A stretch of DNA of 64,000 nucleotides, from IMG/VR virus record IMGVR_UViG_2061766007_000327; one strand, written 5' to 3'. Shown one piece after another: positions 4,210-59,678 of this stretch. The notes below the pieces were generated by a model. That model worked only from the letters and a program-made list of their open reading frames with translations. It searched no databases and was not told the DNA's origin. The DNA is from an uncultured virus (IMG/VR IMGVR_UViG_2061766007_000327). Lineage: Duplodnaviria > Heunggongvirae > Uroviricota > Caudoviricetes. The position numbers and the translations under genes were made by a program. The number at the start of each line of letters is the position of its first letter. The stretch's first letter is position 1.

Positions 4210-5766
4210 ATGAATGTTAGTGATTACATCAATCCCGCTAAAAAGAAGCCTTGGTTGAGGAGGGTAGCCGACGAATCTCCTGCCAGTGCGGGGATTGGCT
4301 TCAGAATGCAGATAATGACGCAGGATGATTTCTTGAACGAGGTCTATTCTGCCGCCCACAAGATCAACTCCCCGATGATGTCGCGGAGACCGATTTACGG
4401 TCCCTCTGGTGTCAAGGACGCAAAGGGGAAGGAGAAGTGGACGATCGTCGGATACGACGATGTCGAAACTGTTCCAATCAGCAAGCAGGAATCCATTATC
4501 AGCAAGAAGATATCACATTTTGCGGCTAATGGTTTCTGGACGGCTTCGGAATCCCCGGACGAAGATAGGTTCAACACCCTTATGTCCTGGGCGGATACCG
4601 TTGGACTGAAAACCGCCTTCCTAGAGGTAACCAAATCTGCGATGAGGACCGGAGATGGCGCGATTTACCTCTACCAGACAGAGGATGAAGCAGACCCTAT
4701 CCAGTATGAGGTCTATGGATACGAAGAGGGCTCGACATTGTTCCCTCACACAACATTCGATGGTAAGAAATCCCTCGCAAGAAAGTATAAATATGAGGGG
4801 CACGATGCGGTCGATATCTTTACGACCCAAAGCATAGAAACCTGGATGATGCTTGACGACAACGGCGACGAAGACATCATCGGTCTTACCGGGCGGGTGA
4901 AAAGCGAAGATGGCTATACCCTTGTAAGGGCTAAAGCAGCGCAGGCGGGTAGCGACCTCTGTCAGTGCATCTATTTCCGTTTCGACGATATCCCCACCGG
5001 ACCAGCCCAGGCACAGATTGAAAAACTGGAAGATGCCAAGACCTATGTCGGGGAACATCTGAAGGGCACGGCTATGCCTATTCTGTTTATGAAGGCAGAG
5101 AAAACAACCAGCCTTCCTCCTTCTAGCCTAGCGAATAAGGCTATCGGCGTCAAGGGTACTGCGGACAGCATTGCTCACGCCGACGCAAAGTGGCTTGCTC
5201 CGCCGGATGCTAGTAATATCGCCGATATGCATATTGACGGGCTTGAAGATGATATCCGCGAAGCCTGCCTCTCCGTAAAGATTGATCCGGAGATTATCAA
5301 GCAGGGGAGCGATTCTTCCGCCACCATGAAAATCCTGTATGCTCCCGAAGTGCAGTGGGCACAGATCCACTGGCCGGAAGTATTCAAATCAGTCAAGCAG
5401 CTTATGCTCGTGTTCAAAACCCTTGTCGGCAAGGTCGAGGGGGATACCGTCGGTTACAATAAGATGAGGATATCTGTTGGACAGAATATTTTTATTCCTC
5501 AAAACGAGTCCGAAGCGCTTAAGATGGAACTGGATCAGGTCTATGCCCGAGTCAAGTCTAGAAGGTCTGCTATGCAGGATATCGAAAATGCACATAAGGG
5601 CGATTATGAGCAGATCCAGAAAGAGTGGGAGGAAGAGTTGCGTATTAAAGCGGAAATTCCGGCAGAAGCGAAGGCTAAGTACGGGGTTGATGCTACTGAC
5701 ACCACCCCAAAAAGCAACCCGGCCAACGTAGATAATAACGCTCCCGGGAAAAGTATACAGGACTAA
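4210..5766 (+). CDS. portal protein
   Basis: 518 aa immediately after terL; SPP1-like features (GDGAIYLY, SSATMKILY). Confidence 0.75.
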   Translation: MNVSDYINPAKKKPWLRRVADESPASAGIGFRMQIMTQDDFLNEVYSAAHKINSPMMSRRPIYGPSGVKDAKGKEKWTIVGYDDVETVPISKQESIISKKISHFAANGFWTASESPDEDRFNTLMSWADTVGLKTAFLEVTKSAMRTGDGAIYLYQTEDEADPIQYEVYGYEEGSTLFPHTTFDGKKSLARKYKYEGHDAVDIFTTQSIETWMMLDDNGDEDIIGLTGRVKSEDGYTLVRAKAAQAGSDLCQCIYFRFDDIPTGPAQAQIEKLEDAKTYVGEHLKGTAMPILFMKAEKTTSLPPSSLANKAIGVKGTADSIAHADAKWLAPPDASNIADMHIDGLEDDIREACLSVKIDPEIIKQGSDSSATMKILYAPEVQWAQIHWPEVFKSVKQLMLVFKTLVGKVEGDTVGYNKMRISVGQNIFIPQNESEALKMELDQVYARVKSRRSAMQDIENAHKGDYEQIQKEWEEELRIKAEIPAEAKAKYGVDATDTTPKSNPANVDNNAPGKSIQD

Positions 5767-7928: not shown

Positions 7929-9146
7929 ATGGCAAATAAATACAGCGAAGGTTTTTACACCCTCATGGAAGAAGCTGGAATCCTTTCCGCCAAGAGTTTC
8001 AGCACTTATATCAGGGACGTCATCGGATTCGGCAATCTGCAGGATCTGAATCTTGACGGTTTCTCCTGGGACCCCGTTTCATCCCTTACCTTTGACTACG
8101 AGCAGCTGATCGTCAGCAACCGCCTCAAGGTAATGGCAACCTATACTGACAAGGATTCCGAGGCTATTCCTTTCGGAACTGAGGGCTTCGAGGCCGCACG
8201 TGGCGTCGTTCCCCGTCAGAAGGCTCGCTTCATCTGGGATGAGGATGACTATCGTAAGTATCTTGACGCCGTCCGCAAGCTGGACTTCCAGAACACCACT
8301 GCAAAGCAGTATGCTCTTGACCTCCTCTTCAACGGTCTCAGCGACATCAAGAACGCTCACGAGCTGTCAATGACCTATCAGCGTGACCAGATGGTTTCCA
8401 ACCGCGCCCTTACACTGTCGACTGACAATAACCCTCGCGGAATCACTGGACTGACCTTCTCAGCACAGGTCCCCGCCGGCAATGTTACCACCCTTTCTGG
8501 CGACTATCGCTGGTACACCAGCGCTACCGAGAAGGACAGCACTCACGAAGGCTCAAGCGCCGACCCTGTGAAGGATATCCGCACTATTGTCCGCAATATG
8601 CGTCGCAAGGGATACACCGACATCATCCTCGAGGTTGATGAGCAGTCTTGGTATGACGATATGGATCACAGCGCATGGCGTACCGCCATCGGCTATCAGC
8701 TCCGTCCCGACCTTGTGCTTGCCGCCAGCAATGACGCTAACGCACTTGCAGTTGGTAGGGCTGCCGGCGACGACGCTGTCCGTCAGGCCTTCTCCCGTAT
8801 CATCGGCATTCCTCTCGCGAACATCAAGTTCCGCCAGGGTCTCGCCGCTGTCGAGAAGCTCCAGGGCAAGGGTCCGGATGCCAAGCTGGTTCGCACCTCG
8901 ATGCGTACCTTCAACGCGAACACCTATGTGTTCTATCCGGCTGGACCTCTTGGAACCATCAAGTCCGTCCTTCCTCTCGTTCCCGACTCAAAGGCTATGT
9001 ATGCTACCTTCTTCGGCGGCAAGGGCCTCATCCAGTACGAGTACGATGCGAAGTCCAAGACCCAGGATTGGTGGTCTGAGCTGACTGCTCTTTGCGTGCC
9101 TAACCGCCCGCAGGAGATGTTCTACCTTATCACCTATTCCGCCTAA
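7929..9146 (+). CDS. major capsid protein
   Basis: 405 aa, strongly biased codon usage, position after scaffold and decoration genes. Confidence 0.8.
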   Translation: MANKYSEGFYTLMEEAGILSAKSFSTYIRDVIGFGNLQDLNLDGFSWDPVSSLTFDYEQLIVSNRLKVMATYTDKDSEAIPFGTEGFEAARGVVPRQKARFIWDEDDYRKYLDAVRKLDFQNTTAKQYALDLLFNGLSDIKNAHELSMTYQRDQMVSNRALTLSTDNNPRGITGLTFSAQVPAGNVTTLSGDYRWYTSATEKDSTHEGSSADPVKDIRTIVRNMRRKGYTDIILEVDEQSWYDDMDHSAWRTAIGYQLRPDLVLAASNDANALAVGRAAGDDAVRQAFSRIIGIPLANIKFRQGLAAVEKLQGKGPDAKLVRTSMRTFNANTYVFYPAGPLGTIKSVLPLVPDSKAMYATFFGGKGLIQYEYDAKSKTQDWWSELTALCVPNRPQEMFYLITYSA

Positions 9147-36259: not shown

Positions 36260-37188
36260 ATGGCGGAAGATTCTAAAACGATAATTTTACCCGATAACCA
36301 GAATAATGGTTGGGGCAATGTGCCGTTCGCTATGACCCTACCCCTGTACGGTGGCTATGGATACGGGAACGGCTTTGGCAACGGACTGTTCGGCGGTGGC
36401 GGCTTTGGCGCCGGCATCCTCGGCGGGATCCTCGGAGGACTGATCCCCGGATTCTTCGGAGGCTGGGGCAACGGCTTCGGCTGGGGCGGAAATGGCAATG
36501 GAGGGGCAGNNNNNNNNNNNNNNNNNNNNNNNNNNNNNNNNNNNNNNNNNNNNCGGACGCCGATGTCAGGCTTCTGGCTACTACCCTTAACAGCGACATC
36601 GACAGCGTAAGGCTGGCCATCAACACTGTTCAAGGTGCAGTCCAGCAGGTTGGCTCTACCGTCGGTCTTACCGGACAGCAGGTCATCAACGCCATCCAGC
36701 AGGGTGATGCTGCCCTTGCCTCCCAGTTGTGTCAGTGCTGCTGCCAGACGCAACAGCAGATTATGGCGCAGGGATACGAGAACCAGATCCGCACCGTCGA
36801 GCAGACCAACACTCTCGGCAACGCTATCAACTTCAACGGACAGCGCAACGTCGACGCGATCGCAGACCTAAAGACCACGATGGTTAAGGAATTCTGCGAC
36901 CTCAAGGAGCGTGATATGCAGGAGAAGATCAATAGCCTGACGGCTAATAACACTCTCCTCAGAAGTCAGATCGATAATGCAGCACAGACCGCCACAATTG
37001 CTGGCCTTATTGCACCCGTAGCAAAAGAGGTCGATGACATCAAGTGCAAGATGCCTCAGACAGTTCCCGTCCAGTGGCCTCAGTTGACCGCCGTGAATAC
37101 AACTCCTTATGTGAGCGGAGGCTTCTATGGCAACAACTGGAACAATTTCGGCTGGGGCGGCTTCGGCGGTAACGGAATCGTTTTCTAA
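36260..37188 (+). CDS. Gly-rich membrane-segment plus coiled-coil protein with CQCCC motif (one gene across a gap)
   Basis: N-terminal G/F/W-rich hydrophobic region, then Q/N-rich heptads and LCQCCCQTQ. Confidence 0.7.
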
Positions 37189-37201
37189 AATAAGGTAGGC
37201 T

Positions 37202-37534
37202 ATGTTCGGATGCGTTAATGTAACAACTAACGTGAACGGCACGCCGTACCTTCGCACCACTGGTGTTACGGTCGGGACCGACTCGGTGGATTTCACTCTG
37301 GGCTTCCGGAGGATTCCGCCGGTTGGTTACCTGACCATCAACATCGCTGACGCGATCCCCGAGGGGACAACAGGTACTCTTCCGGTGCGATTCACGCTGA
37401 ATGGGCAGACCCGCGCCCTTACTTCCTTCGGCGGGGTGGCAGTCACTGCCGCCGACCTCACAGGAACCGGCATAATCCAGGTCTTCTACGACTGGTACAA
37501 CGGAATCCTTCAGACTACATCACCAATTATCTAA
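37202..37534 (+). CDS. hypothetical beta-rich protein
   Basis: Co-oriented member of the cassette. Confidence 0.65.
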   Translation: MFGCVNVTTNVNGTPYLRTTGVTVGTDSVDFTLGFRRIPPVGYLTINIADAIPEGTTGTLPVRFTLNGQTRALTSFGGVAVTAADLTGTGIIQVFYDWYNGILQTTSPII

Positions 37535-37546
37535 ACAATAAAAACA

Positions 37547-38062
37547 ATGCTCAGTAATTTACGTCCTGGAACGCCGGTCTACATTCTTTATAAGAACGGA
37601 CCACGCGTCGCAACCGCAAAGGTCGCGCAACTTAGCAGCCAGTACCCTCCTCAGTTTAACTTCCAGATGCCCCCGAACGGGATGAACCCCGGGCCGATGT
37701 CCGACCTCACGATAGAGGTCGACGGGAAGACGGAACTATATCCCAAGATCCCGACATCGTCGTCCATAGCGGAATTCCCAGACAAGGGCGTCGTCATAAG
37801 CGAAACGAGGGATGGGATAATCAATGAAGTGAACGCAATCAGAAGCGCCAGCGTCACCGCGCTTGAACAGGTAGATGCTCACAAGGGGATAATCGCTTCG
37901 TGCGACCAGCTGTTGCTGGATCTGAACCCGCAATTGAAGAAGGAGCAGGAACAGGCGAACGAGATTGCGACTCTGAAACAACAACTGGCGGGGATGAGCG
38001 AACAGATTGCGGCGATGACCGGACTCTTGTCTAAGTCGCTGGGCAAGAAAAAGGAGGAATAA
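37547..38062 (+). CDS. hypothetical protein with C-terminal coiled coil
   Basis: Co-oriented member of the cassette. Confidence 0.65.
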   Translation: MLSNLRPGTPVYILYKNGPRVATAKVAQLSSQYPPQFNFQMPPNGMNPGPMSDLTIEVDGKTELYPKIPTSSSIAEFPDKGVVISETRDGIINEVNAIRSASVTALEQVDAHKGIIASCDQLLLDLNPQLKKEQEQANEIATLKQQLAGMSEQIAAMTGLLSKSLGKKKEE

Positions 38063-38065
38063 AAA

Positions 38066-38341
38066 ATGTCATACAGAGTAATAAGTATGAGGGGTGACCG
38101 CTACGGGCGGAAGTCCGAAGCCGATGAATTCTTCCACGCTGCAGAGAAGGCTCGTGCTGCCGTCGAGGAGATGCATGACCTAGCCTGCGAAATGGAAGAC
38201 AAATACGGTGAGCGCTATTTCGGCGAACGAGGCCGCTATGGCATGCGTGACGATTACTATGGGCGTCGTGACCACGAAATGTGGGACGATGATATGTACG
38301 GAGAACGTCGGCGCAGAGACAGCCGTGGAAGATATATGTAA
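38066..38341 (+). CDS. R/G/Y/D-rich protein ending RRRRDSRGRYM
   Basis: Low-complexity charged protein. Confidence 0.65.
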   Translation: MSYRVISMRGDRYGRKSEADEFFHAAEKARAAVEEMHDLACEMEDKYGERYFGERGRYGMRDDYYGRRDHEMWDDDMYGERRRRDSRGRYM

Positions 38342-38347
38342 TCATTT

Positions 38348-38371
38348 TGGGGCGGGTTAACGCTCGCCCCT
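38348..38371. terminator. intergenic hairpin
   Basis: TGGGGCGGG-TTAACG-CTCGCCCC. Confidence 0.5.
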
Positions 38372-38385
38372 AAATTTCAAAAGCA

Positions 38386-38787
38386 ATGGCAAGATTAGAT
38401 TCTTACGACAGATTACCCGGCGGAATGCGGGAATACTTGTCTTTCAATGATTATCACTTCTCTAAGCCCATGTATATGTGGGCTGTAAGCATGATGAGGG
38501 ATAAAAACGGAAGCAAGGTCGAGCCGATGACAAAGGAGTCTGTGATGGAAATCCTAAAGCGGAACAATGTCGAAATCGAAAAAGACATGGGCTACGACGT
38601 GCCCTTCGTCTTTATGCGCAAAAAGACGGATTCTCTTGGCGGTTCCATCCCTGATGAGGCTCACCTAGCCATGGCGGTCAAGGAGTTCTTCACGGATAAG
38701 GACGGGTACGACACAATGGCATTTGATGAGTTTCTTACAAAACTCAATGCCCTTGGGATTCCCGTAGACTGGTCAAGTATGCTTTAG
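38386..38787 (+). CDS. hypothetical protein
   Basis: YHFSKPM...DKDGY...IPVDWSSML; member of the cassette. Confidence 0.65.
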   Translation: MARLDSYDRLPGGMREYLSFNDYHFSKPMYMWAVSMMRDKNGSKVEPMTKESVMEILKRNNVEIEKDMGYDVPFVFMRKKTDSLGGSIPDEAHLAMAVKEFFTDKDGYDTMAFDEFLTKLNALGIPVDWSSML

Positions 38788-40898: not shown

Positions 40899-41128
40899 TT
40901 CTTCAATCTGTTATATTCCTGTAATATCTTCTCCGGGTCATCGTTCCAGAAGGCGATGTCTAAAATGGTCTTGATGTCCTCCACGGTGAGGGATTTTCCG
41001 AGTTCATAGAACTTGTGTGCTATATTCTTTCCCCACTGAAGAATTGGCTCATAGTGTTTTATCATTGGGGATGTTTCAGGACAATCAAGGTGTTCTTCTA
41101 CCCACTTGTCAATCTCTTCGTTTGTCAT
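40895..41128 (-). CDS. hypothetical protein
   Basis: ATGA overlap; FYELG motif. Confidence 0.6.
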   Translation of the reverse strand: MTNEEIDKWVEEHLDCPETSPMIKHYEPILQWGKNIAHKFYELGKSLTVEDIKTILDIAFWNDDPEKILQEYNRLKK

Positions 41129-41622
41129 TGCTTTACGATTATTATCTTCACCTTTATATCCTCATCGTACCCAAGTTTCTCGAGGGACTGGTCAAGTCTT
41201 ATGGATAAGCCTCTCTGATTCCAGTATCCTATCTCTCCTTCCACCGCATCCTTCGTCATCTGCTCCTCCATCGCTTTCTTGCCTTCGTTCACACCGTCCC
41301 AGAAGCATCCGTCACGGTCTTTTAACCATTCGTCCATCATCTGAACCTTCTGCCACTCTGCCCCGGCAAGAAAACCTTCCTTTGATGCCTTTACATCTAC
41401 ATCATCGTAGTAGTTGTTGGAGCCATCATAAGGAACTCTGAACCCGTGCTTATCAGCATATTCTTCCGCTGCTTCCTCCAAGTCCTCGGAAGGCTTTTCT
41501 GGCAGGGAGTCAATGAAATTCAATAATTGTTGCATTGCTGTTGGAACGAAGGTGTAACCTCTATACAAGTAATCAACTTTCAGCCTCTCAATCTCTGCTT
41601 TTATCTTCTCAATGTTGCTCAT
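41125..41622 (-). CDS. hypothetical protein (SEDLEEAAEEYA / FLAGAEWQ type)
   Basis: Start re-assigned to MSNIEK; modular phage accessory ORF. Confidence 0.65.
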   Translation of the reverse strand: MSNIEKIKAEIERLKVDYLYRGYTFVPTAMQQLLNFIDSLPEKPSEDLEEAAEEYADKHGFRVPYDGSNNYYDDVDVKASKEGFLAGAEWQKVQMMDEWLKDRDGCFWDGVNEGKKAMEEQMTKDAVEGEIGYWNQRGLSIRLDQSLEKLGYDEDIKVKIIIVKQ

Positions 41623-41936
41623 TTTGTCATTATTTTTCTGGTAATTCTGGACAAGGCATCCAATAACTTTACTTGCGGGATATTCCACCCATCATAGTCA
41701 ACAATCATTGTCTTGTCAGAGACTATATGAGCGAAACATAGATGACAGGCTATTGGGAGTGTATGACCGTTAGCCTCATTAGTTAATACAATGACTTCTT
41801 CGTTCTCTGGAGGAAGTTTTTCTTTGACACTTATCCACCTTGGAGGCTCTATTATATTTAGTAATTCTACCATTGCAGGATAATATGATTTACCTTTCTT
41901 CTTGTCAATTTCTCTCTGTAACTCTGCTTTTGTCAT
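41619..41936 (-). pseudogene. DUF551-like gene with a frameshift near the 3' end
   Basis: WISVKEKLP is present; YWMPCPELPEK* lies in the adjacent frame after ~41665. Confidence 0.55.
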
Positions 41937-42097
41937 GGCCACATTATCATTTCAATTCGCTGTCCACCCTCATCATCTATAAATTCAAAAGTGACATCAT
42001 CCAATAGGGAGTTTCTATAATTCACAAGTGGTACATCTCCACTTGAAAGTTGCATAGCTAAGGCTTGTGCTTTTCTAATAAGGTCATTGAGTGTCAT
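41933..42097 (-). CDS. hypothetical protein
   Basis: Start MTLNDL. Confidence 0.5.
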   Translation of the reverse strand: MTLNDLIRKAQALAMQLSSGDVPLVNYRNSLLDDVTFEFIDDEGGQRIEMIMWP

Positions 42098-42110
42098 TTC
42101 TTTCCCTCCT

Positions 42111-42821
42111 TTAATCAGTAAATGATGGGTTATGCTCCTTGCCATCAGTAGCAGAAGTATTGCCATGCAAGGTTGCTGTTGATGTTCCAGAAGCCGTATT
42201 GGGTGTTGTGATTGTTCCTCCAGTTGTGAATCTTTGGGGGCAGTTAATGCAATCACCATGAGGATTAGTACAATGTGTACCATCACATCCCCATCCAGAA
42301 GGCGGTGTTGGCATAATAGGGAAATGATATGCTACTGACTCATTATACTGCTTCTCGGCATCCTTGTAGCCCTTGTTATAGCCCTTGGTATGTGCGTTCA
42401 ACTCCTTCTTTGCAATGTCATCCTTGAGCCATTTTGGGAGCTTATCTGGATTGCAGAAATAAGTCCTTTCAAGGTCAGCCATTGCCTCTATTGCTGGGTT
42501 GCTTTCGTCAGCATAGGATAGGAGCTCCCTTCTAGCAAGAGAAAGAAGAGTATTGGCGTGTCTTTTAGCATAGTCAAAAGCTACATTTTCTCCATGTTCT
42601 TTACAATATTCAACAATATCAGACACCTCTTGTTCAAACTCCGTCAGCCTTGAGAGTTTCTTCTTAATGAGTTTCTCAACAACATCATAAGTGCCTCCCT
42701 CAAATGCCTTCTCTATCTTCTCACACTCATAACTTGAGCAGCACATAGTCTCTTCTGGTCTTTCCCTGTCAATGAACTGCACAAGGGCAGTTGTAAGTGT
42801 CTTTGCTAATTCGTGGTTCAT
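42111..42821 (-). CDS. hypothetical protein with C-terminal Cys cluster
   Basis: CDGTHCTNPHGDCINCP. Confidence 0.65.
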   Translation of the reverse strand: MNHELAKTLTTALVQFIDRERPEETMCCSSYECEKIEKAFEGGTYDVVEKLIKKKLSRLTEFEQEVSDIVEYCKEHGENVAFDYAKRHANTLLSLARRELLSYADESNPAIEAMADLERTYFCNPDKLPKWLKDDIAKKELNAHTKGYNKGYKDAEKQYNESVAYHFPIMPTPPSGWGCDGTHCTNPHGDCINCPQRFTTGGTITTPNTASGTSTATLHGNTSATDGKEHNPSFTD

Positions 42822-42822
42822 A

Positions 42823-43065
42823 TTACATTGAGTTTAATTTGTTTACAACTTCTTGAAATGCTAAGTCTCTTACTATCGCATTTTCGTGCGGAATAGCTCT
42901 TGCTTCTTGAATCCATTCCAAGAGAGCATCCTTGCAGATGTATTCTTTCCATCCTTCTACATATTGGTCAATATCCTTACTATCAAACCAATCATCCCCA
43001 AGATGTGTATCAATCCCATCATCATTTGGATAAAATGGTATGTAAATTTTATCTGGTGCTTTCAT
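42823..43065 (-). CDS. hypothetical protein
   Basis: MKAPDKIY...EYICKDALLEW. Confidence 0.6.
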   Translation of the reverse strand: MKAPDKIYIPFYPNDDGIDTHLGDDWFDSKDIDQYVEGWKEYICKDALLEWIQEARAIPHENAIVRDLAFQEVVNKLNSM

Positions 43066-43412
43066 TACCTTTCCTCCTTTGCATTAAGGCCAAGTTCGTA
43101 GAAGTAGTTGGCAATATCTACAAAAGAGAACCAATTCAGCCATACAACTACTTCTGCCCCTTCACTATATTTAGCAATGTGTTTGTTAAATGAATCCCAC
43201 TCCATTTTAATATCAGCATCCAAATCAGCTTCCTTTTGCTCCTGCTGGAGAGAGTCAATGAGAACAATAGTTTCTTCAAGTGAGGCTATCCTTGCTCCAA
43301 GACTTAACTTATCTGTCTTGCTTAAACCTTCTCTTTCTTTTTCTGTGGAGAATAAAGATTTTTGTCTTTCTATCTCGGCAATCAGTTTTTCTGCGTCAAT
43401 ATATTTAGTCAT
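43065..43412 (-). CDS. hypothetical protein
   Basis: MTKYIDAEKLIAEIER...FYELGLNAK. Confidence 0.65.
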   Translation of the reverse strand: MTKYIDAEKLIAEIERQKSLFSTEKEREGLSKTDKLSLGARIASLEETIVLIDSLQQEQKEADLDADIKMEWDSFNKHIAKYSEGAEVVVWLNWFSFVDIANYFYELGLNAKEER

Positions 43413-43432
43413 ATCTAAATCAAATTAAAAAG

Positions 43433-43514
43433 AGGGTGCGTACTCGGCGAAGTAAATTAATGTCCTATATCATGAGAAATATTCGCATCACTGCGATGTG
43501 CCTTTCCGCACCCT
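43433..43514 (-). ncRNA. structured intergenic RNA candidate A
   Basis: Outer stem AGGGTGCG/CGCACCCT, GAA/AGTA loop-E-like juxtaposition, inner CGCA-GTGA-TGCG hairpin, 34-nt unpaired segment. Confidence 0.5.
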
Positions 43515-43519
43515 ATTGG

Positions 43520-44236
43520 TTAACAATCAGGGTCAAAATGTTGATAATACTCTGGCTCTTCTTTCACTCCCAATTTCTTAAGGTCAGCGTAAAGATTGGC
43601 AAGAAAGTCTGCCATATCATCACAATAATCTTTTCTCAATGCCGCAACAATAGAGAAGAGTCTATCTATCTGCTCCTCGCTGGGTTTCCAATGAGGTTTG
43701 AGGGATTTGAGCCAAGCAATATCAGATTTTACGGCCTCTATCTTATCATAGTCGGATTTGCATCCCTTTACATATTCCAACGCTTCTAAAACATTAGCAT
43801 AATGTAATCTATCTTCCTCGCTCCACTCTGGCTTCTGCTCTTTCTGCTTCATAGCATCATCCCACCCACGCCAATATGCAGGAGTATCACGGATGTCCGT
43901 ACCATCAGAATCGCTATGTTTTGGGCTTCTATCCTCGCATTTTGCATCTGCCGTGCAATCTGACGAAATAGAATCAGCGGATTTGGGATTTTCTTTCTGC
44001 TTTTCAAGCCAAGCAATATATCTACTTGCTGCTTCTTCGGTAAATGAAATACCACTATTGGAACGACCAATTTTAATGGCATCAATAAGTTGTTTCCTTA
44101 TCCTCTCATCCTCGCTCTCTGCGAGTTCGGGGAAGATTTGTTCTATCTCGTCTACAGATATGTGCATAAGGTTATAACTATCGTGGAGTTCCTTGGCTCG
44201 TTCAAGAGCCTCTTTGTACTTTTCTTCGTAGTTCAT
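43520..44236 (-). CDS. hypothetical protein (YKEALERAK / ESEDERIRK / WKPSEEQ type)
   Basis: Modular phage accessory ORF. Confidence 0.7.
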   Translation of the reverse strand: MNYEEKYKEALERAKELHDSYNLMHISVDEIEQIFPELAESEDERIRKQLIDAIKIGRSNSGISFTEEAASRYIAWLEKQKENPKSADSISSDCTADAKCEDRSPKHSDSDGTDIRDTPAYWRGWDDAMKQKEQKPEWSEEDRLHYANVLEALEYVKGCKSDYDKIEAVKSDIAWLKSLKPHWKPSEEQIDRLFSIVAALRKDYCDDMADFLANLYADLKKLGVKEEPEYYQHFDPDC

Positions 44237-44345
44237 TTCTTTTCCTCCTTTTGTTGTTTGCCACCCATCCTGCGATCCAGAAGCCGACGCTCCAGAGTCC
44301 GAGAGTGATAAATAATACTTCGTTGGTTGTCATACTTATTTCAAG

Positions 44346-44412
44346 AATAAGGGCGCATGGCTGTAAATAAAAGTTAATTCATAATGTCAAACGGTTGCCA
44401 CGCACCCCTATT
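44346..44412 (-). ncRNA. structured intergenic RNA candidate B
   Basis: 16-bp stem with 3 G-U pairs closing a 35-nt loop; shares TAACCAATAGGG(G)TGCG with candidate A. Confidence 0.5.
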
Positions 44413-44414
44413 GG

Positions 44415-44621
44415 TTATAACTGTGGGGAATCTTCGTCACCGTAGAATCTTGAGTGTCGGGCATAGTACCCTTGCAAGGCAATCGCTATGTCCTTATTTA
44501 GTCTTTCATCGGCATACAAAGGTTCAATCTCATCGTGTGCATCATTGTCAAGGATGATCGCTATCTTGCCCTTGTGTCTGCGGATGTTCTCAACTACATT
44601 CCTATCTAATCTGTCTAGCAT
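44415..44621 (-). CDS. hypothetical protein
   Basis: Packed ORF. Confidence 0.5.
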   Translation of the reverse strand: MLDRLDRNVVENIRRHKGKIAIILDNDAHDEIEPLYADERLNKDIAIALQGYYARHSRFYGDEDSPQL

Positions 44622-44875
44622 ATTTCCTTGTTTAAACGATAGACGAGTCCGTCCTTAACGATAACGCATTTATCATTTTCGGACAGTTGAACATTATCAG
44701 GTCTTGCGATCTGCTCTACTTTCGGTCCACCGAAGAGACCTACTCTATGGACTGCGAAAGATATGTCCTTATTCAAGGCTGTCACTCTCGCACAATGATG
44801 GACAGTGCCCTCAAAGAATCTCTGGGCATCTGCTCTGATAAGGCGTAAACGCCATAACGCTTTTATTCTTCTCAT
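44615..44875 (-). CDS. hypothetical protein
   Basis: Packed ORF with A-rich leader. Confidence 0.55.
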   Translation of the reverse strand: MRRIKALWRLRLIRADAQRFFEGTVHHCARVTALNKDISFAVHRVGLFGGPKVEQIARPDNVQLSENDKCVIVKDGLVYRLNKEIC

Positions 44876-44897
44876 ATTTTATTGTGTTAATTCCTTG

Positions 44898-44995
44898 TTC
44901 CCTCCCGGGGAGTCGAACCCCTATTGATTGGCAAGTTAAGGGTGTTTGATATAGCGTGAAAAAGACTTACAGCCACCCGTGTGGCACAGGAGGGA
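44898..44995 (-). ncRNA. tRNA-like RNA with an expanded 28-nt anticodon loop
   Basis: Acceptor TCCCTCC/GGAGGGA, D-like GCCAC-ACGG-GTGGC, stem GTAAGT/ACTTGC, T arm GGGG-TTCGACT-CCCC. Confidence 0.6.
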
Positions 44996-45013
44996 AGCGA
45001 CGCATCACTGCGG

Positions 45014-45388
45014 TTAATCGTCTATTATATCATCCATATCGTATTTATCCGAATCTACCTCCTCGGCATACGCCTCCAGCACCGCCTTCAGAGCAGCCTT
45101 CCAGGCATCGCTGATATTGGCGGCATCGATAGTCGCGATCACATCATCTGAAACAGTCCCGACATCTTGCATATCGCAATACGGAGCAAGACCGACACTA
45201 GTATCTTCACCGGCCTCGAACGAAGCCTGCACCTTGAATTCCTTGGGGACACAATCCGACACCTCGGCCAGCCTATCGAGGACATCCTCCATATAGACTA
45301 ATGCTTCTGCGGTGAAATCACGCGCCCACCAATAACCACCAACCATTCCGTTGCCATCGTAACTTACTCTTCCACTTCTGTAACTCAT
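45014..45388 (-). CDS. acidic hypothetical protein
   Basis: Start MSYRSG; D/E-rich. Confidence 0.6.
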   Translation of the reverse strand: MSYRSGRVSYDGNGMVGGYWWARDFTAEALVYMEDVLDRLAEVSDCVPKEFKVQASFEAGEDTSVGLAPYCDMQDVGTVSDDVIATIDAANISDAWKAALKAVLEAYAEEVDSDKYDMDDIIDD

Positions 45389-57623: not shown

Positions 57624-57864
57624 AACTTTTGTTTTTAAGTGTTAAACTTTGCTTTTCAGTGTTGGTAACGCTTGCAGTGTCTTATCTATTAATAGGTATT
57701 TTCCCGCTTGCGTTATACCTATATAATTACAGATATTATGCCAAATATGCTATAATATATAAATTTATACCTTTTGACAACTTAATTATCGTAAAACGAT
57801 ATGAAAATATATTAAATTTATACCTTTTGAATAATTTTAAGTTTGGCACACCTAAAATAGTACA

Positions 57865-57907
57865 TGACAAAATGTCATGACAAAGTGTCAGGCCTGACAA
57901 AATGTCA
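57865..57907. promoter_or_regulatory. three palindromic TGACA-N3-TGTCA boxes
   Basis: 57865-57877, 57878-57890 and 57895-57907. Confidence 0.7.
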
Positions 57908-58136
57908 TGTTTTATGTCTTATCGAAAAACATTAAAAAATTTACGTTTTACGCTGCTTGTAACCAACATCACAAAGGGACTAAATGCTTGATTGTCAACA
58001 ACTTAAAACGTTTTAAAGGGTGGCGGGGTATGCCATGTAGGCCGAGGGACAGACCCCAGGTGCGTTCCTGAAATTTTTTTTCGAGTGTAATTCGATGTAG
58101 CTGAAACTGTGTAAAACCTACCTAATATCATAAGAC

Positions 58137-58354
58137 CTACACTCTATAAATAATTAATTTTCAACTTATTAATCTTTAAAATGTAGAAGTGTAGTTAAGT
58201 AATAAGATATAAAAGGTAATATGCTCTCTTTATACGTATATAAAAAGAATGGCATTTCAGACTACACTCCTACACTGGATCTTCGTAACTGCGATGATTA
58301 TCAATGTGTTGCACCGATGTACCCCTGAATGTAGGGTGTACACTGCCCTACACT
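58137..58354. repeat. CTACACT/AGTGTAG iteron-like repeats around an AT-rich tract (putative origin)
   Basis: CTACACT at 58137, 58262, 58270 and 58348; inverted copies near 58182-58194 and 58330-58341. Confidence 0.5.
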
Positions 58355-59424: not shown

Positions 59425-59509
59425 GTTTATGAGAATATCCCGCAGTGATGCGCGTACCGTGTTAGTTTTTCATTGTGATTGTTTTACTGGCAGCCGGGAA
59501 AGACCGGCA

Positions 59510-59565
59510 GGCGGGGAAGCGGCGGTTTAGGGCCGCGGTCGGAGGTTCGAATCCTTCCCCCGTTT
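59510..59565 (+). ncRNA. D-armless tRNA-like element
   Basis: GGCGGGG/CCCCGTT acceptor, GCGGC-GGTTTAGG-GCCGC arm, GGAGG-TTCGAAT-CCTTC T arm. Confidence 0.6.
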
Positions 59566-59611: not shown

Positions 59612-59678
59612 AGGCGAGTCCTCGTCGGGTGTACCCACCCTCCCCTGGCGGAGGTGCCCGATGGGGGCTTGCCTTTTT
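59612..59678 (+). terminator. long G-U-rich hairpin plus U tract upstream of the helicase gene
   Basis: AGGCGAGTCCTCGTCGGGT pairs with GCCCGATGGGGGCTTGCCT, followed by TTTT. Confidence 0.6.

Follow-up and report, generated by a model that had tools for sequence, protein, structure and literature searches.

Elements A and B, two intergenic cassettes in the accessory-gene region of a tailed phage, belong to a structured-RNA family that is new to Rfam and consists of a constant frame around a variable core. Members of the family share a folded scaffold with compensatory changes in the inner helices, exchange their interiors, and are mobile. As the best explanation, we propose that A and B are stable small RNAs cut from the accessory-gene transcript and that their loops pair with host mRNAs; judged from sequence, this proposal has a little less than an even chance of being right. 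A preliminary description of this DNA had read A and B either as processed sRNAs or as recombination-prone cassette boundaries. Processed sRNAs are the better supported reading, with processing and expression putative. The same description missed the constant scaffold with exchangeable interiors and a neighbouring tRNA-like element of like build.

Genomic setting and anatomy of elements A and B

The window, by which we mean the whole stretch of DNA analysed (64,000 nt), comprises most of a tailed phage genome, with genes for a major capsid protein, a tape measure protein, a primase-like protein and a resolvase (31 ORFs scanned). Its sequence is present in bovine gut runs, and parts of the A/B region, B included, recur with variants in contigs of other bovine samples (four runs), where the region is mosaic. 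Relatives of the capsid protein lie on contigs of up to about 65-79 kb, one of them labelled as coming from a Bacteroidales bin. A protein atlas gave no usable match. A and B lie inside a minus-strand block of short accessory genes, mostly without a Pfam family. Their parts and flanking ORFs are as follows.

43520..44236, minus strand: 238-aa modular accessory ORF upstream of A, with relatives in front of many family members; no Pfam family
43413..43522, minus strand: element A, whole cassette, from the stop codon to the base before the next ATG (sequence and fold)
43507..43514, minus strand: 5' arm of the closing stem of A, 8 bp (fold)
43500..43506, minus strand: loop-E-like GAAA strand of A and inner helix GGC, pairing with 43448-43441 (covaries in six members)
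43484..43495, minus strand: GCA-GUGA-UGC GNRA hairpin in A (missing from the related locus L085, which has the rest of the loop)
43449..43478, minus strand: single-stranded cargo of A, common to L085 (three transitions); its reverse complement scores as a Bacteroidales start region
43433..43440, minus strand: 3' arm of the closing stem of A, followed by the U-run and leader of the next gene (fold)
43065..43412, minus strand: 115-aa ORF downstream of A, with relatives in the prophage remnant of G936; no Pfam family
44415..44621, minus strand: 68-aa ORF upstream of B; homologues in L016, L017 and L076 have no element behind them
44334..44417, minus strand: element B, whole cassette (sequence and fold)
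44346..44412, minus strand: 16-bp closing stem of B with three G-U pairs, around the 35-nt loop 44396-44362 (fold)
44362..44382, minus strand: segment of the B loop, complementary at 21/21 positions to the leader (-46 to -26) of a TonB-dependent-receptor-like gene in the genome G913 (sequence match)
44202..44333, minus strand: 43-aa ORF downstream of B; no Pfam family

A check of ORFs and sequence confirmed that both elements lie on the minus strand where the preliminary description had placed them, and that each opens with the stop codon of its upstream ORF (43520..44236 for A and 44415..44621 for B). The window holds exactly two copies of TAACCAATAGGG, at 43511-43522 and 44406-44417. The 16-bp stem with three G-U pairs around a long loop, described earlier for B, was seen in its fold (arms 44412-44397/44361-44346). 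This fold has a minimum free energy of -25.4 kcal/mol (z -3.9) and 0 of 200 shuffled sequences were as stable, whereas the opposite strand reached -16.5 (z -0.8). The loop-E-like motif and GUGA hairpin reported for A were likewise found; A consists of an 8-bp stem (43514-43507/43440-43433), a GAAA/GAGUA internal loop, a 3-bp inner helix and the GCA-GUGA-UGC hairpin. Its fold is moderately stable (z -2.3, 6/200 shuffles as stable; opposite strand z -1.5). Searched against Rfam, neither A nor B gave a match, whether at the gathering score over the whole window or with E relaxed to 10 / 2 for 43300-45100 and 11 related loci. The GUGA hairpin was rejected as a host marker (0/5 genomes). The same cap occurs in terminator-like hairpins of G702, and therefore it is probably just a stable tetraloop.

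At many gene ends in 41100-44340 (minus strand), AGGAGG stands directly before the next start codon, which may reflect translational coupling. Bacteroidia ribosomes reportedly do not use Shine-Dalgarno pairing.

A family with a constant frame

Occurrence of the motif elsewhere had been named as a test of the preliminary description, and the motif was found elsewhere, as a real family with covarying helices. Its 17 copies are spread over this phage, 12 related contigs and one prophage remnant (G936); the family is intergenic and not in Rfam. The plan is constant: an upstream TAA, a fixed closing stem AGGGUGCG...CGCACCCU, and a U-rich tail running into the next start codon. The interiors, of about 13 types and 42-88 nt, do not align across the family. 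Of 19 viral loci matched by a pattern requiring both closing-stem arms, 2 were true members; of 60 metagenome loci, 12 were, including two that repeat the viral ones. Matches with an A/T-rich stretch of 20 bases behind the stem and a phage gene-junction context were kept, and chance, coding and REP-like matches were dropped. Two further copies came from gaps in those loci and one more from the G936 prophage remnant.

The pattern requires the core pairs, and their conservation is therefore partly by construction. The inner 3-bp helix, which adjoins the GAAA/AGUA loop, lies outside the demands of the pattern and occurs in four paired forms in the six loop-E members (GGC/GCC, GAC/GUC, GUC/GAC and GGC/GUC). 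The G936 copy, which was found without the pattern, has C-G in place of a U-A pair of the closing stem, changed on both sides. Hairpin-rich interiors were seen in this copy and in L025/L071a.

TAA lies directly upstream of the stem in all 16 tabulated copies, a U-run follows in 14 of them, and in every one the next ATG lies 15-29 nt behind the stem and the element is oriented with its flanking genes. A start at the stop codon of the upstream gene holds for A and B but is not a rule, as the TAA belongs to the conserved motif itself; in L059, L067, L074a and L085 the upstream gene ends a few bases earlier, and the TAA is that of a relic gene tail. RNA-level selection on the minus strand had been argued from strand asymmetry. 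The asymmetry holds for B but not in general, the coding strand folding better in 7 of 16 members and the other strand in 9. Because the energy asymmetry is not general, the strand assignment rests on B, on co-orientation with genes and on the loop-E and GNRA motifs.

The constant co-orientation, the U-run behind the stem in 14/16 copies and the position of all of them 15-29 nt before an ATG would also suit cis-acting mRNA elements. As partial terminators, or as signals for processing or stability, these would adjust the accessory genes behind them, and the interior would matter little. However, the loops of 35-88 nt are long for intrinsic terminators, one interior stands before unrelated genes, one gene is found with different interiors or none, and related phages do without the elements. 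We regard a purely cis-acting role as unlikely.

The Bacteroidetes -7 promoter motif TAnnTTTG occurs in 0/16 members; a phage-specific promoter may be present. The bare 5' motif gave 15 matches in viral contigs, none with a closing stem in phage context, and two loop-E patterns gave no match there. A genome collection yielded 54 matches, and among those listed none was of phage type after filtering (topoisomerase III coding sequence, REP-like palindromes and chance). GenBank phages and plasmids gave no match or chance matches only, and order-level prophage searches of 401 genomes found none. No description of the family was found in the open-access papers searched; supplementary lists of predicted phage RNA motifs could hold it.

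Pattern matches in cyanobacterial and proteobacterial genomes (L135, L145, L148) share TAGGGTGCG...CGCACCCTA, and we take them to be REP/REPIN-like. They were rejected as family members, since their pairing is nearly full length and they end in CCTAC. The phage copies, in contrast, have open interiors, U-rich tails and a fixed gene-junction context, and the likeness is treated as pattern convergence. Long-range stems with open interiors and U-rich tails were also seen at gene junctions at L280:9416-9565, in the L025 gap at 4658-4809 and in the L061 gap at 2079-2173 (all minus strand); they differ in arm sequences and are possibly more scaffold types.

Mobility and exchange of interiors

The cassettes are accessory and mobile, being present or absent at the same gene junctions. 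In L016, L017 and L076 no element follows the homologues of the gene upstream of B, and in L017 homologues of the genes that flank A directly abut each other. The interiors of L070 and L076 are identical over 53/53 positions at different gene junctions, those of A and L085 agree at 35/38 between different genes, those of L025 and L071a at 50/58, and those of L064 and L071b share 19 nt. The relic tail of the modular upstream gene accompanies the element in 10/16 copies. Overall, the same gene is found with different interiors or none, and the same interior before unrelated genes. Because interiors are conserved while their neighbours change, the data argue that the interior itself is selected and may act in trans.

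Recombination-prone cassette boundaries, as proposed earlier, describe well how the elements move, with presence or absence at junctions and travelling relic tails, but leave the conservation of interiors between phages unexplained. The same must be said of DNA-level recombination landmarks (PeSL- or attC-like) that would shuffle accessory genes, with interiors as neutral captured fragments. Presence and absence at identical junctions, the relic gene tail that moves with the element in 10/16 copies and the mosaic region in other samples are what such landmarks would produce. On the other hand, G-U pairs, loop-E and GNRA motifs are RNA-level features, the TAnnTTTG promoter motif is missing from 16/16 copies, most genes in the region have no element, and no integron integrase was found among the 31 ORFs scanned. 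We consider landmarks of this kind distinctly unlikely.

A second, tRNA-like frame

The neighbouring element that had been overlooked lies in the same gene block.

44890..45016, minus strand: element C, a GNRA hairpin behind a stop codon, then a tRNA-like scaffold around a variable middle (sequence comparison)

The scaffold of C is made of an acceptor-like stem, a D-like hairpin and a T arm. The phage G703 carries the C frame before a homologous gene; there, 28 bases at the 3' end are identical to C, the D-like hairpin covaries and the middle differs. ARAGORN and Rfam made no call for C, and no cloverleaf with a 7-nt anticodon loop was found; C was rejected as a tRNA, only the three parts named being present. 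Two unrelated frames, A/B and C, with exchanged cores in one gene block lead us to favour a putative 'stable carrier plus cargo' design.

Other tRNA-like sequences were noted. At 59441-59560 (plus strand) the same GCA-GUGA-UGC hairpin precedes a tRNA-like element that is degenerate but has a clear T arm, and that neither ARAGORN nor Rfam called; a 21-bp stem comes next, at 59612-59674. tRNA-like RNAs with an inserted or degenerate anticodon arm occur at L175:14163-14297 (plus strand) in G703 and at L173 (minus strand), about 1570-1670 from its end, in G702. A tRNA-like T-arm element at L156:1400-1545 (plus strand), in the prophage immunity region of G452, has a 3' flank in common with C and a C4-like position beside a repressor gene.

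Probable host and candidate targets of the loops

Because G936 has related genes and a family member, its genus of small-genome Bacteroidales, which also includes G913, is the likely host genus; our guess, based on genome size and GC, is that it corresponds to Cryptobacteroides/UBA932. Neither A nor C has a partner in G913, and G913 is therefore at best a relative of the true host.

Target prediction for the loops, suggested earlier, gave one candidate host mRNA, which is for B; A and C gave none. In G913, the leader of a receptor-like gene is complementary at 21/21 positions to the 3' 21 nt of the B loop, in the right orientation and on the mRNA strand. The match site lies between a -7-like promoter motif and the ATG, near the predicted 5' end, and the duplex has an energy of -24.9 kcal/mol. 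The gene, found in 65 of the 71 genomes searched, encodes an 1100-aa outer-membrane protein with carboxypeptidase-regulatory and beta-barrel domains, which we take to be an Oar-like TonB-dependent receptor. When B was scored against 743 G913 leaders (from 1.6 of the 2.5 Mb of G913), the receptor leader was best, although as a selected match, at 42.5 vs a shuffle mean of 30.9 (sd 2.6). In a 30-nt profile of 25 other orthologous leaders, independent of G913, the B complement scored 4.2 bits (p 0.023), first of 19 cargoes and above the 99th percentile of other leaders (2.3); the profile places it directly upstream of the start codon, and the result is significant only at width 30 and not at widths 10, 12 and 20. 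A terminal motif like the end of the B complement, defined after seeing the data, stands at the end of 7/29 orthologous leaders vs 0/213 others.

The G913 match comes from one genome picked from 101 of the genus, and four other perfect 21-mers lie elsewhere in the same 2.5-kb query; by a rough estimate, the probability of a chance origin is a few percent. The site is not conserved: in a set of 23 genomes from the genus, G913 alone gave a good match, and 3-mismatch matches numbered two, fewer than in the reversed control. Local-alignment scores of B against 29 orthologous leaders were not raised (p 0.12), and 401 order-level genomes gave 11 matches vs 4 in the control, none of which extends.

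For A, no target was found in G913 or in a pattern search of 301 + 131 + 61 + 13 + 13 + 5 genomes, and for C none among the 743 scored G913 leaders or in other G913 searches. OmpA was rejected as a target of C; it was the best of 213 leaders (p about 0.1), but p was 0.44 on 743 leaders, and 23 other OmpA-family leaders showed no enrichment, which leaves it unsupported. On the 743 G913 leaders, 17/19 cargoes were at chance level, and for a second G936 scaffold a search of the host genome that carries it gave no near-perfect partner. When the interiors were compared with 248 kb of DNA from this phage and its relatives (part of the genome may be missing from the window), no antisense match exceeded shuffled controls. 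The L074a cargo matches upstream of a glycosyltransferase gene in G913 with a score of 44.5 vs a null maximum of 40, as one of 18 unselected tests. This site, at about 8020-8060 (minus strand) of L340 (G913:C2), lies inside the end of the preceding ORF in a polysaccharide locus.

Reverse complements of five of the 17 scored cargoes resemble Bacteroidales start regions, in which adenine at -3 is a known determinant according to the cited text (PMC6847099). Scores were 7.1 bits for A (p 0.005), 4.1 for L085 (p 0.012), 5.8 for L074b (p 0.057), 3.5 for B (p 0.07) and 3.9 for L070 (p 0.115), A and L085 not being independent; all five fall among the values of 240 real starts (mean 5.4, sd 5.2). Seven of the 17 had no scorable anti-AUG.

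The missing complement for most loops could instead mean that these trans-acting structured RNAs do not base-pair but are decoys for proteins or ribonucleases, the stem serving only to stabilise and display the decoy. Mimics of this kind might, for example, sequester host defence proteins, Cas complexes or RNA-binding toxins. Hairpins abound in several interiors (L025/L071a and the G936 copy), which differ in a covariation-like manner, and loop-E and GNRA motifs, which are typical protein or tertiary contacts, are present in the elements. However, loops of the A, B and L070 type are largely unstructured, Rfam shows no match to a repeat, antitoxin or other family, and B has its complement in G913. 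A decoy function is, in our judgement, rather unlikely.

Comparison with known systems

The A/B family works most like C4 antisense RNA, yet it is not a member, differing in three of four C4 criteria. According to the cited text, C4 RNA of P1/P7, and C4-like RNA of Acinetobacter baumannii, is cut out of a longer transcript as an RNA of about 80 nt; its stem scaffold is conserved, and its variable loops set the target and cover ribosome-binding sites (PMC5320573). Both are phage RNAs with a conserved stem scaffold and variable loops, whereas the RNase P cut at the 5' end that marks C4 RNA is putative in our family. As far as the source goes, C4 has three stem-loops (P1-P3) with a'/b' loops, whereas B has one stem and one loop, and A a stem, a loop E, one hairpin and an open strand. 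C4 loops pair with phage mRNAs, whereas no complement was found for our family within the 248 kb of phage DNA searched, and unlike C4 it occurs in several copies per genome with swapped cargo. The C4 covariance model of Rfam gave no match in the searches described above for A and B, neither at the gathering score nor at the relaxed E limits.

Like the family, the PeSL (promoter-terminator) elements of T4-like phages are repeated structured intergenic elements of hyperplastic accessory regions with gene gain and loss (PMC4122927). In terms of that description, the family differs in having no promoter motif inside, no short terminator hairpin and a long exchanged interior. With respect to the terminator, it has a U-run in 14/16 copies, but 35-88-nt loops. 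The position at indel boundaries, present or absent at the same junctions, is the sole shared criterion.

The phage trans-acting sRNAs VpdS, 24B_1 and STnc6030 are reported as single loci, mostly Hfq-linked, in Proteobacteria, and the account cited gives them no shared scaffold with exchangeable guides, unlike our family (PMC12197685). Phage sRNAs, including that of a lambda sRNA preprint (10.1101/2024.10.31.621285, as far as cited), act on mRNAs of the host or of rival phages, and the family would do likewise in our proposed reading.

Integron attC sites were also compared. They have pairing RYYYAAC / GTTRRRY terminal boxes, one site per cassette gene and an integrase nearby. The elements were rejected as attC sites, as their ends have no such boxes, most genes have no element, and the scan of 31 ORFs gave no integron integrase.

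Proposed function and implications

From the anatomy of the cassettes in the accessory-gene region of rumen Bacteroidales phages, we suggest that one transcript covers them and their flanking genes. An RNA of 60-110 nt would be released by cleavage in the A/U-rich flanks, by partial termination at the U-run, or by both, and its paired ends would resist nucleases. The one candidate target and the compositional signal suggest that the loop might then base-pair close to the 5' end or start codon of a host mRNA and reduce its translation. In the case of B, the outer-membrane TonB-dependent-receptor-like gene might be the target, and its down-regulation could lead to superinfection exclusion or to less re-adsorption of progeny. 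Pairing over 21 nt in a closed loop would need threading of the nearby mRNA 5' end, or a nick. Hairpin-rich interiors (L025/L071a and the G936 copy) may act otherwise.

A wider extension of this proposal is possible but doubtful. Such phages might keep a reprogrammable RNA-silencing toolkit with at least two natural scaffolds (loop-E/closing-stem and tRNA-like) and recombination-swapped guides taken from host gene leaders, so that each strain would silence chosen host genes (for outer-membrane receptors or defence, for instance) and need no dedicated phage protein to do so.

If the loops are guides, exchangeable antisense RNAs would serve as accessory 'genes' in phages of a dominant rumen bacterial group, forming a layer of phage-host conflict that is invisible to protein-based annotation. 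The loops would then point to host genes relevant to infection (receptors, defence) and help to match uncultured phages with their hosts and receptors, and the scaffold could be used as a native tool for knock-downs in Bacteroidales. If they are not guides, the elements still form an undescribed structured-RNA family with an unusual design of constant frame and variable core.

Other features of the window

A cluster of glycine-rich and low-complexity ORFs, one with DUF7841, lies at 36260-38787 (plus strand), before a strand switch. At 58180-58276, near a switch of GC skew and gene direction, a 16-bp stem encloses a 65-nt A/T-rich loop, and short repeats nearby, at about 57860-57910, suggest an operator, origin or genome-end region.
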